64,000 bases of DNA. Source: an uncultured Candidatus Saccharimonas sp. GTDB taxonomy: Bacteria > Patescibacteriota > Saccharimonadia > Saccharimonadales > AQU-01. The notes under the pieces were generated by a model. That model searched no databases, was not told where the DNA came from, and worked only from the letters and a program-made list of their open reading frames with translations. The stretch covers positions 1,997 to 65,996 of the forward strand of contig CALRGT010000004.1 in the NCBI GenBank assembly GCA_943358095.1, written 5' to 3'. Below are positions 6,457 to 35,150 of the stretch, one piece after another (positions within the stretch are counted from its first letter, which is position 1; every line of letters begins with the position of its first letter). Both the position numbers and the translations under genes were made by a program.

Positions 6457-7923
6457 TTATATTTCTCCGCCTACGACTTGTTTTATATCTGTAATTATAC
6501 CACTGCTTGTCTTAATTTTATGCCATAATATTATAACTAACATAATCATTCCGCTGTACATCAACACCATTTGCCATACGGTTATTGACTGCTTCACTAA
6601 TGCTCTCGGCAATCTAGACAATAAAGACACCACATCTAACATATAGGTCAAAGATAGCCTCGACGGCATAGCCAGCCAGCCCGACATAAAAGGCACGAAC
6701 ATTCCAGCCAAACCAGCAACCAGACATAAGGACATCGCTATCGGAACTAGCGGTACCACCAACACATTGGCTAGCAATGCTACAGCCGAAAATTGTCCAA
6801 ATATATACATAATTATTGGCATAGTCATTATCTGAGCAGCAGAAGTCTCGATAATTAACGTCATTAATATTTTAGGTTGCCTACTTTTAAATACCCTTTT
6901 AGTTATTAGCGGTGCCAGAACTAATATTCCAAAAAAAGCTAGAAAAGATAAATACCAACCGATGTCCGACCATAGATATATTGGATAAACTCCGGCCGTG
7001 ATTACTGCAGCCAATAATATCAAAACTATAGGGCGAAATGTTCTGCCGTAATACCAAGCCCACAAACTAAGAGTACTTACAATTGCCGCTCGGACTATAG
7101 AAGCGCTGAAGCCTGTGAATAGCAAGAAAATTCCTATCAAAAGTAACGATGCGACTGTACTCTGATATTTTGAACGCTTTCTGAGCAACTTCCTGACGGC
7201 TCGCATTATTATTGTTAGATTATATCCAGACACTGCGACTACGTGAGTCAAGCCAACTGCCGCTAACTGCAGGCTAACAGATTTTGGTATCGTGCTGCGC
7301 TGACCGATCAACAATCCAAGACCAAAAGATGCAGCCGGCTCAGGCAATGCCGACTGCATTCCAGCCTCAAAACGGCGACGAATTACTTCAATTAAAGAGT
7401 CAGATTTTTCGATAACTTTTATGCTCGCAAATGATAGACTAGCCTGACGTGGTCCACGAGTTGGATATAATTTTGCACTAACCTGCACAATATCGCCCTT
7501 ATAAACCATTGGCTCGCCAAAACCCTTAACACCTATCTTGCCAACCAAGTCTATGCGATAAGGTTCAATAACTTTAATTTGACCTAAATCAAAACTAATT
7601 TGAGATTTATCTCCGTAGACTGCATCGCTATCAGCTACACCCACAACAACTACATTATTTTTATATAAATTATTGTAATTATCTAGCAGCGACATATATG
7701 CACTGCCTCGCCACCAACCGATAGACAACCCAAGTAAAATTAAAGGAACAGCAAACATAACTCTTGCTCTGCGCAGGGTTATTGTTATCAATAATAAGCT
7801 AACCGCTAGCCACCAATGTTGAAATTCAATTTTAGTTCGAGCCAGTCCTAGTCCGACCAATACTGCCGTCAAAAATACGGCTATTAAAGTCGTTCGCCGA
7901 AACTTATATTTATAACTAGTCAC
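6457..7923 (-). CDS. comEC: ComEC/Rec2 family DNA-uptake channel (no beta-lactamase-like C-terminal domain)
   Basis: 488 aa, polytopic, with an N-terminal OB-like region followed by the competence membrane domain. Confidence 0.75.
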   Translation of the reverse strand: MTSYKYKFRRTTLIAVFLTAVLVGLGLARTKIEFQHWWLAVSLLLITITLRRARVMFAVPLILLGLSIGWWRGSAYMSLLDNYNNLYKNNVVVVGVADSDAVYGDKSQISFDLGQIKVIEPYRIDLVGKIGVKGFGEPMVYKGDIVQVSAKLYPTRGPRQASLSFASIKVIEKSDSLIEVIRRRFEAGMQSALPEPAASFGLGLLIGQRSTIPKSVSLQLAAVGLTHVVAVSGYNLTIIMRAVRKLLRKRSKYQSTVASLLLIGIFLLFTGFSASIVRAAIVSTLSLWAWYYGRTFRPIVLILLAAVITAGVYPIYLWSDIGWYLSFLAFFGILVLAPLITKRVFKSRQPKILMTLIIETSAAQIMTMPIIMYIFGQFSAVALLANVLVVPLVPIAMSLCLVAGLAGMFVPFMSGWLAMPSRLSLTYMLDVVSLLSRLPRALVKQSITVWQMVLMYSGMIMLVIILWHKIKTSSGIITDIKQVVGGEI

Positions 7924-25478: not shown

Positions 25479-25555
25479 TGGTAGCGGCGACAAGATTTGA
25501 ACTTGTGACCCCAGGCTTATGAGTCCTGTGCTCTAACCAACTGAGCTACGCCGCC
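25479..25555 (-). tRNA. tRNA with CAU anticodon (elongator Met or Ile2/lysidine type), CCA encoded
   Basis: GGCGGCG-TA-GCTCAGTTGGTTAGAGC-A-CAGGA-CTCATAA-GCCTG-GGGTC-ACAAG-TTCAAAT-CTTGT-CGCCGCT-ACCA. Pair 1:72 is a G-U wobble. Confidence 0.85.
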
Positions 25556-26047: not shown

Positions 26048-26347
26048 ATGTACAAATTGTTTGTAGGTGGATTGCCATTTAGCACCACTGATGAAGAAAT
26101 GGCTCAATTATTTAGCCAGCACGGTACTGTTGCTTCTGCTGTTGTGGTCAAAGACCGCGACACTGGTCGTAGCAAAGGTTTTGGTTTCGTCGAGTTTGAA
26201 AACGACGACGAAGGCAAAGCTGCCGAAAAAGCTCTTAACGGATCAGACATGGGCGGTCGTTCAATTACGGTCAACCAAGCTCGTCCTAAAGAGGATCGAC
26301 CACGCCGAGACTTCGGTGGTGGCGGTGATCGCCAACGCAGCTGGTAA
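26048..26347 (+). CDS. RRM-type RNA-binding protein with Gly/Arg-rich tail
   Basis: 99 aa with RNP2 LFVGGL, RNP1 KGFGFVEF and a C-terminal RRDFGGGGDRQR. Confidence 0.9.
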   Translation: MYKLFVGGLPFSTTDEEMAQLFSQHGTVASAVVVKDRDTGRSKGFGFVEFENDDEGKAAEKALNGSDMGGRSITVNQARPKEDRPRRDFGGGGDRQRSW

Positions 26348-29985: not shown

Positions 29986-30129
29986 CTATTTTTTTAAAAG
30001 TGCGCCTAACGAAAGGATGGAAGGAACCCAAAGACCGACAAACAATCCTTGATCATGTTCACCGCTAAACCACAAATATAATGCTAATGTAAGAGAAAGA
30101 CCGGCAGCTGCGATAATGTAATTTTTCAT
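29986..30129 (-). CDS. possible 47-aa two-TM micro-protein
   Basis: MKNYIIAAAGLSLTLALYLWFSGEHDQGLFVGLWVPSILSLGALLKK*. Below the ORF-track cutoff. Confidence 0.35.
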   Translation of the reverse strand: MKNYIIAAAGLSLTLALYLWFSGEHDQGLFVGLWVPSILSLGALLKK

Positions 30130-30222
30130 AAAACTTTCATTATTAATATTATGTATGAACATTTCTATTATACGAAACTTCTAATATTAAACACAACCGT
30201 TTAAATAGCATCATTAATCACT

Positions 30223-30290
30223 TGGTAGCGGGGCCAGGGCAAGCGCACTTCAGTCCAGACATTACATCCCCTGCCCTCTAAAGGCAAGAT
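30223..30290 (-). repeat. tRNA-fMet 3'-end-derived element (distal copy), directly after the SDR stop codon
   Basis: Plus strand TGGTAGCGGGGCCAGGGCAAGCGCAC is identical for 26 nt to the copies at 31985 and 33503. The first 16 nt equal the 3' end of the tRNA at 33673-33747. Confidence 0.75.
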
Positions 30291-31019
30291 CTACTTGCCT
30301 TTAATAGAATAGCCGCCGTCAGCCAAAAAATCTGACCCAGTTATATAGCTAGCTTCATCAGAAGCAAGGAACATTACAAGTGGAGCAATCTCTTCGGGTT
30401 TAGATATTCGACCGAGTATTGTCCCGTCACTTATTCTCTTGAAGGTCTCCTCGTTCCAATCGTTAACTTGGTCAGTCTCTACGTAACCTGGTGAAACCGT
30501 ATTAAATCGTATGTCGGGGTAGGTTTTAGCAAGTGCTTTTGTTATTGATATAATGCCTGCTTTTGTGGCAGCAAAAGTCAGAGTACTAGTGGTCGCAAGA
30601 TTTGGCTGTCCTTTGATAGAGCTGATGTTGATGATACTTCCGGACTTGTTCGATTGCATTGACGGCACTACGGCCTGGATGCAGTGCAATGTGCCCAACA
30701 CGTTCGTTTTATATTCTTCAATTGCCTTATCATCGTCCATTTCAGTGACATCTTTTAGGAAGTTGCGAGCAACTCCTGCGTTGTTGACTAGTACATCAAT
30801 GCCACCCAACTCCTTTATAGCACTCAGAGTGGCGTTTTTGTCGGAAACGTCAAATACGGCTTTGACTGAGCCATCAAGACTCTTTTGAACTTTCTTTAAC
30901 TCCTCGCTATCCGTACGGCCATGGACTATTACTGTATAACCTTGTCTATGGGCTAATTCAGCGATAGCTTTCCCTATGCCTCTACTTGAACCAGTAATTA
31001 AGATTGTTTTCATAGTCAT
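30291..31019 (-). CDS. short-chain dehydrogenase/reductase family protein with Tyr-to-Phe change in the catalytic motif
   Basis: 242 aa with TGSSRGIG, NNAG and NISS motifs. The expected YxxxK reads FAATK. Confidence 0.8.
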   Translation of the reverse strand: MTMKTILITGSSRGIGKAIAELAHRQGYTVIVHGRTDSEELKKVQKSLDGSVKAVFDVSDKNATLSAIKELGGIDVLVNNAGVARNFLKDVTEMDDDKAIEEYKTNVLGTLHCIQAVVPSMQSNKSGSIINISSIKGQPNLATTSTLTFAATKAGIISITKALAKTYPDIRFNTVSPGYVETDQVNDWNEETFKRISDGTILGRISKPEEIAPLVMFLASDEASYITGSDFLADGGYSIKGK

Positions 31020-31031
31020 ATCATATCAGAC

Positions 31032-31062
31032 AAAATAAAATGACCCCAGTAATGAGGCCATT
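31032..31062 (-). terminator. intrinsic terminator after tRNA-like element E1
   Basis: Minus strand AATGGCCTC-ATTACT-GGGGTCATT forms a 9-bp stem with 2 G-U pairs, followed by TTTATTTT. Confidence 0.55.
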
Positions 31063-31073
31063 GTGCTTATGCT

Positions 31074-31133
31074 TGGTAGCCCAAGTGCATTCGAATTGGA
31101 ACGTACTCCTTGAAGAGTTGGCTAGATGGAATA
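31074..31133 (-). repeat. tRNA-like element E1 (GGGCTACCA family), directly after the HAD stop codon
   Basis: Minus strand ...ACTC-TTCAAG-GAGT-ACGTTCCAATTCGAATGCACTTGGGCTACCA. A near-identical 29-nt core is found at 31622-31650. Confidence 0.7.
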
Positions 31134-31517
31134 CTATAAATTTACAGCTAGAAAGTCTTCGAGAGCTTTTAGGTCTTTTTTCACTGGGTCGTAATACATT
31201 GTATTGATACCAGCTGTCTCAGCGCTCTTAACGGCCTCTGGGTTATGCTCAAAGAAGACTACTTCGTCTGGCTTCAATCCATAGCGTTTTAACATAATTT
31301 CAAAATACTTAGGGTCTGTCTTTTCTGGGTCATGCTTTAGAGTAAATACTTCGTACGGCACATCATCCAACTTAAACTCTTTGAATTGCTCGTCATTAGC
31401 ACCAGTCAGGACGATTTTCTTATTAGGAAAAGTCTCTAAGAGTGCGTGCATTTCTTTGAAGATAGTTCCATCTTTAAACACCAAGCCGTCTATTGCGTCC
31501 ACAAGTATTGTTTTCAT
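31134..31517 (-). CDS. HAD-superfamily hydrolase-like protein
   Basis: Start trimmed to ATG 31517 (MKTILVDAIDGLV, a DxD-like motif I). A later FFEHNPEAVKSAETAGI resembles motif IV. 127 aa. Confidence 0.55.
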   Translation of the reverse strand: MKTILVDAIDGLVFKDGTIFKEMHALLETFPNKKIVLTGANDEQFKEFKLDDVPYEVFTLKHDPEKTDPKYFEIMLKRYGLKPDEVVFFEHNPEAVKSAETAGINTMYYDPVKKDLKALEDFLAVNL

Positions 31518-31556
31518 ATCTCCATCATACCAAACCCCAAGCAAGACTCGAACCAT
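31518..31556 (-). promoter_or_regulatory. conserved upstream block with extended -10 (TGGTATGAT) and T-loop-like GGTTCGAGTC
   Basis: Minus strand GGTTCGAGTCTTGCTTGGGGTTTGGTATGATGGAGAT-ATG. A homologous block lies at 32970-33010. Confidence 0.4.
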
Positions 31557-31580
31557 TTAACAGCTAAGAATTATTGGTAA

Positions 31581-31610
31581 CAAAAAACCTCTGCTACGAA
31601 TAACAGAGGT
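31581..31610 (-). terminator. intrinsic terminator after tRNA-like element E2
   Basis: Minus strand ACCTCTG-TTATTCGTAG-CAGAGGT followed by TTTTTTG. Confidence 0.7.
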
Positions 31611-31621
31611 CAAAGTGCTTA

Positions 31622-31713
31622 TGGTAGCCCAAATACATTCGAATTGGAACCTTATCCTTGAGGAGATAAGTTGGTGGACACAGCTTAACAGGGAGGCGAC
31701 GTGTTAATTGAGA
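31622..31713 (-). repeat. tRNA-like element E2 (GGGCTACCA family), directly after the stop of the 64-aa ORF
   Basis: Minus strand ...CTTATC-TCCTCAAG-GATAAG-GTTCCAATTCGAATGTATTTGGGCTACCA. The stem differs from E1 by changes on both strands that keep pairing. Confidence 0.7.
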
Positions 31714-31908
31714 CTACTTTTTAGGAGAGAAGTAGTCAATAGCACCTGAGACCATACAAACGACTCCAACGAAGCCTATAAAAACGGTCCCCCAGTTTAC
31801 ATGCCCAGCTTTGTTCAGACTATCTGTGCTATTGATTAATGCTAGGCCAATTAGTATCTGTACAATTGCCAATCTTGAGTTAGTAGTTTTTGCCATACTA
31901 TTATTCAA
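31714..31908 (-). CDS. small two-TM membrane protein
   Basis: 64-aa ORF with two hydrophobic helices. No motif. Confidence 0.5.
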   Translation of the reverse strand: MNNSMAKTTNSRLAIVQILIGLALINSTDSLNKAGHVNWGTVFIGFVGVVCMVSGAIDYFSPKK

Positions 31909-31946
31909 TCCTTATTTATTCACTCAATTATGCTCGACTTTATGAT

Positions 31947-31974
31947 AAAATAAAAGACCTCGTTTCCAGAGGTC
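31947..31974 (-). terminator. intrinsic terminator after the tandem tRNA-half block
   Basis: Minus strand GACCTC-TGGAAAC-GAGGTC followed by TTTTATTTT. Confidence 0.7.
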
Positions 31975-31984
31975 AAAATGCTCA

Positions 31985-32378
31985 TGGTAGCGGGGCCAGG
32001 GCAAGCGCACATTAATTTGTGCGCCGAGAGGCTTCGGGCAACAGACTAATGACCGAACCATGGGACTTCCGCCATTACTGACTAGGGGCCAGGAATACTG
32101 GGGTATAATCCGCCCGTTTGTCGCTAAAGCGACGGGGGATTAGCGAACCATGGGACTTGCTGGTTCAAATACTGCGGGGCCTGGAATATTCCCTCGCTCC
32201 GGCCCGCCAAATCATTTGGGAGTGGCGGGTCGGGCTCAGGATATAATTTTGTCATAACAAAATTATCGAACCTTTTTGGCTCGAGCCCTGAGCCTCGGCC
32301 AAGAAAAAAGCTCCATCTTACTATGGGACTATTTTCTTGGGAGCAGGGTTAGTTTGCTCTACCGATAGGGACTAGAAC
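31985..32378 (-). repeat. ORF-free GC-rich block of three tandem degenerate tRNA-fMet 3'-half modules
   Basis: Pseudo 3' ends lie at 31985-32000 (exact), 32078-32092 (TGACTAGGGGCCAGG) and 32170-32184 (TACTGCGGGGCCTGG). T-arm-like CGAACCATGGGACTT occurs at 32054 and 32144. Several 7-9-bp hairpins lie in between. Confidence 0.7.
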
Positions 32379-32969
32379 CTAGTTTGCCTTTCTGTACATG
32401 TAGTAATAAGTCGTCACTATCACATTAAAAGTAAGACCTTTCATGCAGCTCACAATAAGTGGTGTAGAGCCAATCATGGCTGCGTATGTAAGGGTGCAAA
32501 GTAGAGCGCCGTAGACGAAATATAAGCTTTTTTCTGAAATGCCACTTGTTCTTTTGGAAGTCACAACATGATAAACCCATGGCGCGGCCGCTATGGTATT
32601 GAATATTACCGCAAACCATCCAGCACTTGCGGGGTAAGCACCAATTAACCAAGCGGCCAGTGGGGCAACCAGAGCTACGCTGAGAATTGCTTTTTGACGT
32701 TTTGACTTGTTGGTAACTAGGTAGCCGATTGTCAAACTTGTGATAATAAACATTGCAAAATTAGTCACTAACGGTACCCATAAATTCTCAGAAGCAAAGT
32801 AAACCATCCACCCGATGTTCCCTGCTGCGTAAAGGGTAAGTGTCGGGGCATAAAGACCTTTAGGGTTGCGAGTATGAACCAGCTTAGCAAGTTGCGAGTA
32901 GTTAGAGAGCAACCAAAAAGCCTCAGCTGAGATAATCAATAAATTTTCAATAATTGTTTGTGTAAGCAC
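32379..32969 (-). CDS. polytopic membrane protein, possibly PQ-loop/SWEET-like transporter
   Basis: 196 aa with a GTG start and 6-7 TM helices. Two internally similar halves each carry a basic loop after the first helix (SQLAKLVHTRNPKG and HVVTSKRTSG). Weak pattern call. Confidence 0.4.
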   Translation of the reverse strand: MLTQTIIENLLIISAEAFWLLSNYSQLAKLVHTRNPKGLYAPTLTLYAAGNIGWMVYFASENLWVPLVTNFAMFIITSLTIGYLVTNKSKRQKAILSVALVAPLAAWLIGAYPASAGWFAVIFNTIAAAPWVYHVVTSKRTSGISEKSLYFVYGALLCTLTYAAMIGSTPLIVSCMKGLTFNVIVTTYYYMYRKAN

Positions 32970-33010
32970 TTATGCATATCATACCAAACAACCAGACAGG
33001 ACTCGAAACT
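32970..33010 (-). promoter_or_regulatory. conserved upstream block with extended -10 (TGGTATGAT) and T-loop-like TTCGAGTC
   Basis: Minus strand TTTCGAGTCCTGTCTGGTTGTTTGGTATGATATGCATAA-GTG. Homologous to 31518-31556. Confidence 0.4.
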
Positions 33011-33081
33011 GAAATACAGATTTAATAATATCGCACAACCAAAGCGACTGGTCTTGAAGCCAATCTCTATCTTTAAAGTCT

Positions 33082-33113
33082 TGGTAGCCTTGGTTTGTTA
33101 TAACTGGAACTTA
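33082..33113 (-). repeat. degenerate tRNA-like element E3 directly after the stop of the 99-aa ORF
   Basis: Minus strand TAAGTTCCAGTTATAACAAACCAAGGCTACCA shares GTTCCA...GGCTACCA with E1 and E2. Confidence 0.4.
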
Positions 33114-33413
33114 CTAATAGCAGAAGTGTGAATCGAAGTCTTTCTTCCATTTAGCAATATCACTCGTTGAAGCACCTGATGACTCTACCTGCTTCATGAG
33201 CTTTTCATGACCCGGGCCAGAACAAAATTGCCTGTCAGTATAGGACATAATGAAACTCAAGGCAGTATTATTATACCGATTGGTGCCTGCATTATTAAAA
33301 ACCACCCAAAATACAGTAACAGCTATAAGTATCGACATGTTAACTGCTAACGATATAATCATGACTATTTTTATAACTTTGGTGTCATCCTTAGTTTCTG
33401 ATTGTTTTTTCAT
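33114..33413 (-). CDS. small membrane-anchored protein
   Basis: 99 aa with one TM helix and two Cys in the C-terminal part. No motif. Confidence 0.5.
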   Translation of the reverse strand: MKKQSETKDDTKVIKIVMIISLAVNMSILIAVTVFWVVFNNAGTNRYNNTALSFIMSYTDRQFCSGPGHEKLMKQVESSGASTSDIAKWKKDFDSHFCY

Positions 33414-33502
33414 TTATTCCTTTGATTATTTAACTTAAGCATAATACATACGCAAATAATATTACAGAACCCCGATTTCTGCAAAGTCATGATGCTTATG
33501 TT

Positions 33503-33640
33503 TGGTAGCGGGGCCAGGGCAAGCGCACATTAATCCAGGCGCCCGCTACGCTGGGGCCTGTGACTAATGACCGAACCATGGGACTTGCACCAGCTAAAGC
33601 TGTTGCGTCCCAGAACCGAGTCCTAAACCAGGACCAAAGA
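33503..33640 (-). repeat. tRNA-fMet 3'-half-derived element adjacent to the intact tRNA
   Basis: 33503-33534 is identical for 32 nt to 31985-32016. The 25-nt block GACTAATGACCGAACCATGGGACTT at 33562-33586 equals 32044-32068. Confidence 0.75.
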
Positions 33641-33666
33641 AAATGACCCATCTTGCGATGAGTCAT
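33633..33666 (-). terminator. intrinsic terminator after tRNA-fMet
   Basis: Minus strand AATGACTCATC-GCAA-GATGGGTCATT (one mismatch) followed by TTTCTTT. Confidence 0.65.
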
Positions 33667-33672
33667 TTACTT

Positions 33673-33747
33673 TGGTAGCGGGGCCAGGACTCGAACCTGG
33701 GACCTCGTGGTTATGAGCCACGCGAGCTGCCGCTGCTCCACCCCGCG
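33673..33747 (-). tRNA. initiator-like tRNA-Met (CAU), CCA encoded
   Basis: CGCGGGG-TG-GAGC-AGCGGCA-GCTC-G-CGTGG-CTCATAA-CCACG-AGGTC-CCAGG-TTCGAGT-CCTGG-CCCCGCT-ACCA. Position 1:72 is an unpaired C/U. The 5' half is close to the E. coli tRNA-fMet sequence as I recall it. Confidence 0.9.
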
Positions 33748-33904
33748 TCGTCGATGTGTGATGGTTGGGTAACTGAGCTGCCGGCAAAACAAGTTTGACC
33801 GTCAGTTCTAGTTACCCCACCAAGCCCTCTCCTCCCGATTTCGAGAATCCTCTCTCGAAATCGATTAAGACATTAGACCATTGAAGACATTTGGAACAGA
33901 TTAG

Positions 33905-33933
33905 ATAATACCTTAACAGGGGGGAATTGTCAA
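33905..33933 (-). promoter_or_regulatory. near-consensus sigma-70-type promoter about 150 nt upstream of tRNA-fMet
   Basis: Minus strand TTGACA-17 nt-TATTAT. Confidence 0.6.
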
Positions 33934-35074: not shown

Positions 35075-35150
35075 GGGGGTATAGCTCAGTGGTTAGAGCA
35101 GTCGGCTCATAACTGATTGGTCCTTGGTTCAAATCCAAGTACCCCCACCA
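35075..35150 (+). tRNA. tRNA with CAU anticodon (elongator Met or Ile2 type), CCA encoded
   Basis: GGGGGTA-TA-GCTCAGTGGTTAGAGC-A-GTCGG-CTCATAA-CTGAT-TGGTC-CTTGG-TTCAAAT-CCAAG-TACCCCC-ACCA. Confidence 0.9.

Follow-up and report, generated by a model that had tools for sequence, protein, structure and literature searches.

We favor, with a little more confidence than doubt, reading the structured block at positions 31985-32378 as the joint region of a strain-variable, tRNA-anchored, integron-like array with att-type structured sites and an unlinked recombinase. The array occupies 3.5 kb (30223-33672) directly downstream of the initiator tRNA gene on a chromosome that exact-pattern matches assign to Candidatus Saccharibacteria, and it consists of five single-gene cassettes (for proteins of 99, 196 and 64 aa, a HAD hydrolase and a short-chain dehydrogenase, SDR) and of ORF-less elements, designated L. 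Every unit ends in GCT(A/C)CCA or CCTGGCCCC. Exchange takes place at the copies of the tRNA end: the array is made of discrete units that vary in order and number among close relatives, their junctions fall exactly at these core sequences, and the elements are confined to the array. Compensatory changes on the tRNA-sense strand preserve the fold of L. The window, i.e., the whole 64-kb stretch of DNA that was analyzed, is a core chromosomal region encoding RuvABC, ComEC, DnaJ/GrpE/HrcA, FtsH, MurJ, Dus, WhiB and DivIC. Its plus-strand GC skew is negative throughout 1-64000 (-0.06 to -0.14), which puts nearly all genes and the whole array on the leading-strand sequence. An RRM-domain RNA-binding protein is encoded at 26048-26347.

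On the minus strand, the block begins 1 base past the stop codon of a 196-aa membrane-protein ORF (32379-32969) and is overlapped solely by mechanical ORFs of 41 to 45 aa, confirming the sequence-only reading, which had placed an ORF-free block right after the stop codon of a transporter-like gene. The raised local GC content that it reported was found as well (0.54 to 0.55 over 32000-32299 versus approximately 0.41 for the window), as were all four hairpins that it named. The block is closed by CCTGGCCCCGCTACCA at 31985-32000, followed by a terminator-like hairpin (31956-31974) and a T-run, in agreement with the ACCA end and terminator described earlier. Folding of the 451-nt region yielded -166 kcal/mol, with a z score of -5.96 relative to shuffled sequences. 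Searches with the Rfam 15 models over the block gave no family and only chance-level matches, even at E <= 10, and the tRNA covariance model (RF00005) had no match within 31400-32600 at that threshold. ARAGORN found four tRNAs in the window, none of them in the block, and no tmRNA. As neither the Rfam gathering and E <= 10 scans nor ARAGORN found any, tmRNA, RNase P and other known RNAs were rejected. blastn comparisons of the block with phage and plasmid collections returned no match.

The array is anchored by tRNA-Met(CAT) at 33673-33747 (minus strand; ARAGORN, Rfam tRNA score of 59.1 bits, and sequence), which we assign to the initiator type because of its C1.U72 mismatch. The array repeats the last 16 nt of this gene, CCTGGCCCCGCTACCA. 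Exact copies are present four times on the minus strand, at 33673 (the tRNA itself), 33503, 31985 and 30223, where 0.12 would be expected, and AGTCCCATGGTTCG occurs exactly three times (0.21 expected by chance), so that the repeats noticed in the earlier reading do exceed chance. Seven GCTACCA sites, all on the tRNA strand, extend from 30223 to 33673. As in att repeats, these direct repeats match the tRNA 3' end exactly, share its orientation and lie downstream of an intact tRNA, and the segments that they bound may be present, missing or placed elsewhere in relatives. Further copies of the block's sequences lie beyond its limits, at 33503-33672, 30223-30262, 31074, 31622 and 33082; 33503-33592, the 90 nt just downstream of the tRNA, are 90-94% identical to the part of the block closest to its 3' end. 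The derivation of this noncoding, structured block in part from the 3' end of the neighboring tRNA, as first proposed, is thus upheld.

Three tRNA(CAT) genes are found within 10 kb (25479-25555, 33673-33747 and 35075-35150). The initiator-type 1:72 mismatch is restricted to the middle one, and the first also ends in GCTACCA. A promoter-like TTGACA-17-TATTAT sequence is located approximately 155 nt upstream of tRNA-fMet, which is preceded by a GC-rich leader with two hairpins (33748-33933, minus strand). An insert of approximately 110 nt in this leader is approximately 95% identical in a distant genome, L140 (12859-13040; DivIC 61% identical), and the close relatives L163 and L008 have a short leader devoid of it. 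This distribution suggests that the tRNA-fMet locus itself may have been exchanged between lineages.

All units of the array are on the minus strand. Next to the tRNA is a complete L element of type A (33503-33672; identified from the repeats D1-D3, an nhmmer family search, alignment and covariation), which comprises a terminator-like long hairpin, the helix P2 (CGGTTCTGGGAC / GTCCCATGGTTCG) around a small hairpin, the hairpin P3 and the core CCTGGCCCCGCTACCA. The 99-aa cassette (33082-33502, gene 33114-33413) has its own terminator/promoter leader and a degenerate version, GGCTACCA, of the S end, an element of approximately 75 nt that follows most cassette genes. Next comes the 196-aa cassette (32338-33081, gene 32379-32969), whose product is SemiSWEET/PQ-loop-like according to weak Pfam and NCBIfam matches, and whose S end is shortened at GCTCCCA (32338-32344), a 6/7 match to the core that was used as a secondary site. 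Two ORF-less units follow, as described below. The 64-aa cassette (31622-31984, gene 31714-31908), whose leader contains the terminator hairpin at 31956-31974 together with a promoter-like site, is closed by a full S element, ...TTCGAATGTATTTGGGCTACCA, and occurs in at least six different neighborhoods. The HAD-hydrolase cassette (31074-31621, gene 31134-31556; Pfam) also has an S-element end (S hmm, E = 1.8e-17), and the SDR cassette (30223-31073, gene 30291-31019; Pfam) ends in GTGCGCTTGCCCTGGCCCCGCTACCA. Beyond it lies a distal flank, AGTGATTAATGATGC... (29986-30222, with a 58-aa gene at 29986-30162), recognized as constant by comparison of arrays: in every array variant it comes after the last unit, and in gene-free arrays after the lone L. 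Within the window, matches to the S and L profiles are confined to 30223-33679, which argues that they are not general expression signals.

The cassette leaders fall into a few classes that have in common (T/A)AAGCAYYWTGAC and a terminator hairpin. Those of the 64-aa and HAD cassettes belong to one class, with 92% identity over 25 nt (31604-31628 versus 31967-31991). In some leaders GGTTCGAGTC(Y)TG...TTTGGTATGATG, resembling a T-loop-like -35 box and an extended -10 box, is found directly before the start codon (31520-31556 and 32975-33011 in the window, as well as L007 and L139), implying leaderless mRNAs.

Mapped onto these units, the block is a composite. Its first 41 nt (32338-32378) are a stub of the 196-aa cassette, corresponding to the start of its S end. 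They are followed by a 253-nt ORF-less unit (32085-32337), called M+L2-half, which ends in CCTGGCCCC and was delineated with the help of the relatives L159 and L001; it comprises a terminator-like hairpin (approximately 32299-32337), the element M (32165-32300) and the 3' half of an L2-type element (32085-32164). The last 100 nt (31985-32084) are an L1-type 3' half composed of a 16-nt linker, GTCCCATGGTTCG, hairpin P3 and GTGCGCTTGCCCTGGCCCCGCTACCA, and the linker junction recurs in L008 and L130-L139.

The sequence-only reading had instead described three tandem degenerate modules of a tRNA 3' half, counted from the block's 3' end and carried by one transcript, as a long 3' untranslated region or a separate RNA. 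Modules 1 and 2, i.e., the L1- and L2-type halves, do share head and tail motifs, and the end in ACCA and a terminator and the z score of -5.96 would fit such a transcript. However, the head of module 3, 'AGTCCCATAG', is not homologous to the other two: it is an arm of the terminator-like hairpin at approximately 32299-32338 that opens a different element, M. The head was also proposed to represent the T-stem and T-loop. It is indeed derived from the tRNA, since GTCCCA(T)GGTTCG is identical to tRNA positions 45-57, with 12/12 identities in some copies, but it is no free T-arm: in the elements it forms the 3' strand of a 12-bp helix whose complement lies upstream. A terminator-like hairpin located 39 nt past the stop codon of the 196-aa gene precedes most of the block, and no promoter-like site was found inside the block, which makes transcription as a single 3' untranslated region doubtful. 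In L072, moreover, the 196-aa gene keeps a full, ordinary S site followed by another cassette. As relatives reveal units that assort independently rather than three equivalent modules, we consider a single RNA of this type very unlikely.

The array was compared with those of more than 10 related assemblies, all of them metagenome assemblies, and unit maps were drawn for 12 loci. Arrays are present in the genomes JBAXJI01, CALREK01, CALREB01, GCA_964710555.1 and GCA_043788365.1, and L is missing from the relatives GCA_964630055.1 and the L143 genome. The array of the window is 100% identical to that of a separate 5.3-kb assembly (L158), with the order tRNA, L, 99, 196, M+L2-half, L1-half, 64, HAD, SDR and flank. 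In L130-L137 and L156 the order is tRNA, L2, A'-half, 64, 99, SDR and flank, and L139 has the 64-aa cassette, a 4.3-kb four-gene unit replacing 99 and SDR, a 215-aa unit and the flank. L159 reads tRNA, M+L2-half, an ORF-less unit, 99, SDR, 64, 215 and flank, and L001/L002 end with 64, 99, 196, M+L2-half and flank. Other cargo in L007, L051, L062, L072, L090 and L120 includes AKR and NUDIX proteins, P-loop kinases, histidine phosphatases, alpha/beta hydrolases and pilin-like proteins. L163 and L165 have the tRNA, one complete L and the flank, with no gene at all; this is the smallest state seen among the compared arrays, none of which showed a truly empty site with the tRNA joined to the flank. 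Circular intermediates were not seen either. Both negatives, like the reliance of the comparison on metagenome assemblies and the lack of a recombinase gene described below, count against the reading that we favor.

Unit order and number thus vary among relatives, and the joins are exactly at the cores. M+L2-half, 98-100% identical, comes right after the ACCA of the tRNA in L159, whereas in L001 it immediately precedes the distal flank; it therefore behaves as a unit of its own. The partner changes exactly after ...CCA in 49 listed joints and after CCTGGCCCC in a few. The existence of two junction positions, after ACCA or after CCTGGCCCC, rather than a single fixed crossover argues against the reading that we favor. 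The overlap at novel adjacencies is only 7-9 nt, too short for ordinary homologous recombination to have created them. Neighboring units also diverge unequally in L001, with 95.5% identity for the 64-aa cassette versus 99.5% for 99+196.

An A-rich ORF-less unit of approximately 95-130 nt (CTAAATCACAAAAAATAAACAAAAATCC...) follows CCTGGCCCC in four loci (L001, 51-150; L159, 2382-2470; L072; L087). In L120, a 470-aa orphan ORF on the opposite strand (334-1746 of the oriented copy) directly follows the tRNA and L; it had no match in Pfam, NCBIfam, PADLOC or PDB sequences. A pattern scan of metagenomes mostly returned chance matches in high-GC DNA (approximately 114 of 120 loci), which were discarded, and its only real loci are L051, L062, L072, L087, L090 and L120.

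L elements are approximately 170 nt long, and at least 17 copies were found. Their first part is a long hairpin into which the preceding ...CCA and a T-run are incorporated. It is followed by P2, a helix of CGGTTCTGGGAC with GTCCCA(T)GGTTCG that encloses a small hairpin, by the long hairpin P3, of which there are at least four sequence types, and by the core. The 5' strand of the P2 helix is an inverted copy of the tRNA T-arm. In an alignment of 11 distinct copies, pairing was maintained in 92.5% of the cells, compared with 37-56% in slid controls. Covariation had been suggested as a check of the earlier reading, and compensatory changes are indeed present: both sides changed in 15 of the 33 pairs versus 4.7 in shuffles, a count reached by 0 of 500 shuffles. 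For example, CTGGGAC/GTCCCAG becomes CTGCGAC/GTCGCAG or CTAGGAC/GTCCTAG, and CGGTTC becomes CGAACC opposite GGTTCG. Because G.U pairs are conserved, the fold is assigned to the tRNA-sense strand. Minimum free energy folds show a three-way junction with a free ...CCGCUACCA tail. The hairpin stems of M and L2 are likewise kept by compensatory changes relative to L072, L072b and L140. A pairing of the preceding GCUA with the 3' UGGC proposed by RNAalifold involves invariant columns and was set aside.

This mode of variation bears on whether the block might be a pseudogenized coding sequence. Gene callers do put short ORFs across L in some contigs. However, the changes are indels and paired compensatory substitutions rather than codon-like ones, and an intact ORF at the homologous position, which the sequence-only reading had named as the case against itself, was found in none of the relatives compared. 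We regard gene decay as an extremely improbable origin.

The conserved fold also fits the main rival to our reading, namely that the L elements, including those in the block, are functional structured RNAs tied to tRNA-fMet. Such an RNA of approximately 130 nt might be cotranscribed or produced by read-through and adopt a three-way junction with a single-stranded ...CCGCUACCA tail; it might imitate a part of the initiator tRNA or sequester it, or it might mark and protect 3' ends, and cassette shuffling would then be a side effect of recombination between the multiple copies of its sequence. The compensatory changes and the G.U pairs on the sense strand, as well as the 5' helix strand copied in inverse orientation from the T-arm, are in keeping with this proposal. 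Even arrays free of genes have one L beside the tRNA, as does the distant genome L140, whose locus is inverted, although more distant relatives lack L; this persistence keeps an RNA role as the main rival. The retention of L without cassettes and in L140 also counts against our preferred reading, as it hints at a function of L itself. In contrast, L lies between two terminator-like hairpins without a promoter-like site of its own, it matches no Rfam family even at E <= 10, and half-elements without the 5' domain persist in several strains. An RNA function would also leave unexplained the core end common to unrelated gene cassettes, and on the whole we judge it unlikely.

S is conserved in sequence, TTCGAATG...GGGCTACCA, with CCAYC-GACTTAGCTCC upstream, as seen in an alignment of 22 distinct copies. 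Its last 32 nt align with the last 36 nt of the tRNA, the differences being 3 nt inserted in the T-loop and a missing CCCC. A conserved T-arm hairpin was considered for S and rejected, as its pairing is broken in CCAGG variants. Because the T-stem-like pairing is not consistently kept, no structure is claimed for S, and this inconsistency also weighs against recognition of structured sites in our preferred reading. S does not correspond to an integron attC site with GTTRRRY, since the motif is misplaced (GTTAAGC, inside S, 55 nt from the joint), nor, by inspection, to a Xer/dif-like 11-6-11 site, the motifs being misplaced and the arms not forming inverted repeats.

No tyrosine, serine, HUH or DEDD recombinase was identified among approximately 60 ORFs of the window and approximately 35 cassette proteins, and no match to the Phage_integrase family was detected in the 64-kb window. 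Searches of the orphan cassette proteins for defense systems and recombinases (Pfam, NCBIfam, PADLOC, PDB) returned nothing. Since neither the window nor any array encodes a recombinase, we infer that the enzyme is encoded elsewhere in the genome, from where it would catalyze site-specific joining. In our preferred reading, the copies of the tRNA 3' end (GCT[A/C]CCA, often the full CCTGGCCCCGCTACCA) would act as att-type direct repeats. Each unit has its own copy of the tRNA end at its 3' end, and the cassettes have a 5' terminator and a promoter-like leader. An incoming unit would thus bring its own core copy and regenerate the target, leading to a head-to-tail pile-up; insertion of a unit so built restores the target and gives the upstream neighbor a terminator. 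A unit might subsequently be cut out, lost or inserted again at a different copy. The block itself may have arisen by stacking of a long L-type unit and half an L at the shortened end of the 196-aa cassette. The recombinase would recognize the L fold, perhaps as a folded single strand as in integron attC. The presence of ComEC (6457-7923) and type IV pilus genes (PilM, 351-1412) in the window and the location of the folding strand on the leading-strand sequence would fit single-strand recognition.

By analogy with known systems, the closest pattern is tandem accretion at tRNA or tmRNA genes, and the closest functional counterpart is the integron cassette array. Tandem accretion of integrative elements has been described for the tycheposon islands of Prochlorococcus (bioRxiv 10.1101/2020.12.28.424599) and at the tmRNA gene for the ssrA islands of Dehalococcoides (PMC3146451). 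As in such islands, copies of the tRNA 3' end lie in the same orientation downstream of an intact tRNA and delimit strain-variable cargo, new arrivals push older ones outward, and the anchor is a single-copy RNA gene. Unlike them, the array has units of 170-1100 nt, mostly with one gene and none with an integrase, a conserved 75-nt S end on unrelated cargo, and ORF-less L units with a conserved multihairpin fold.

With integrons and CALINs, the array shares co-oriented, mostly single-gene cassettes that each have a terminal recombination site, strain-variable cassette order and content, and the occurrence of ORF-less cassettes. Like attC, L-type sites are conserved in structure more than in sequence. 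However, there is no IntI gene, the joints are GCT(A/C)CCA or CCTGGCCCC rather than G|TTRRRY, the R''/L''-L'/R' architecture is missing from the sites, the cassettes have promoter-like and terminator sequences of their own, and the platform is a tRNA gene. All units lie after ...CCA in one orientation on the leading-strand sequence, as equally expected for IS200/IS605-type insertion or att recombination. An IS200/IS605-type element was rejected, as no TnpA/TnpB gene was found and the left-end hairpins are variable terminators rather than conserved ends.

Multicopy, ORF-less, modular hairpin elements whose submodules reassort are also known, among them MITEs such as the pneumococcal BOX elements, and REP/BIME. 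The L elements resemble BOX and REP/BIME in being multicopy, ORF-less and made of modular hairpins, but they are found at one locus, in one orientation, and always with a copy of the tRNA end as terminus. tRNA-like 3' structures are found in RNAs such as those with viral TLS or retroplasmid 3' CCA ends. The 3' terminus of the block, ...ACCA after T-arm-derived sequence, is reminiscent of these, although the block has no acceptor stem or cloverleaf, the tRNA covariance model fails, and the T-arm-derived segment is sequestered in another helix.

A further explanation is that the block is inert debris, i.e., partial-tRNA scars and decayed arms left when classical integrase-bearing islands or phages integrated at tRNA-fMet and reshuffled by homologous recombination after natural transformation. 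Direct repeats of partial tRNA sequence are the general footprint of integration at tRNA and tmRNA genes (PMC9897764; Williams 2002, PMC100330; bioRxiv 10.1101/2020.12.28.424599), and the window has ComEC and pilus genes. A viral contig, L151 (IMGVR_UViG_3300035047_000166, 83-1583), harbors a partial tRNA-fMet that spans the anticodon loop through the 3' end and lies 190 nt from the gene for a 431-aa tyrosine integrase; it is a classical att/int pair with the same 16-nt end. L151 was set aside, because the named homologues of its integrase are proteobacterial and the contig has neither S nor L, and it shows only that the tRNA-fMet end can serve as attB elsewhere. Viral scans for the S and L motifs did not find the L pattern, and L129 was a chance coding match. 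Against debris, integrase remnants are absent from every array, the units are compact and mostly carry a single gene, with conserved 75-nt S ends common to unrelated cargo, the L helices are maintained by compensatory change instead of decaying, and identical units occur in new adjacencies that share just 7-9 nt. This explanation therefore appears distinctly improbable.

In full-text literature searches, no account of arrays of this kind was found for Saccharibacteria or Patescibacteria. The array lacks what defines tRNA-gene islands and integrons, as it has no integrase or IntI and no attC, and its cassettes are self-promoted. Tentatively, it might represent an undescribed gene-capture system of Saccharibacteria, with a tRNA+L platform, sites that mimic the tRNA end, a recombinase that is unlinked or of unknown kind, and recognition of the L fold, although we think this less likely than not. 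In such a system the L fold would act as folded single-stranded DNA imported by natural transformation or as an RNA cofactor.

The genomes of Saccharibacteria and other ultrasmall Patescibacteria are tiny and contain few recognized mobile elements, and how these bacteria acquire accessory genes is largely unexplained. The locus is a compact, tRNA-anchored hotspot through which close strains exchange single accessory genes at defined joints of 7-16 nt, among them genes for oxidoreductases, hydrolases, kinases, NUDIX enzymes, small membrane proteins and pilin-like proteins. If L is an RNA instead of a recombination site, it would define a new class of structured RNA linked to the initiator tRNA. 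If L and S are truly recombination sites, the locus would be a new gene-capture platform, and it would offer genetic tools a ready landing site in bacteria whose genetic tractability is recent.
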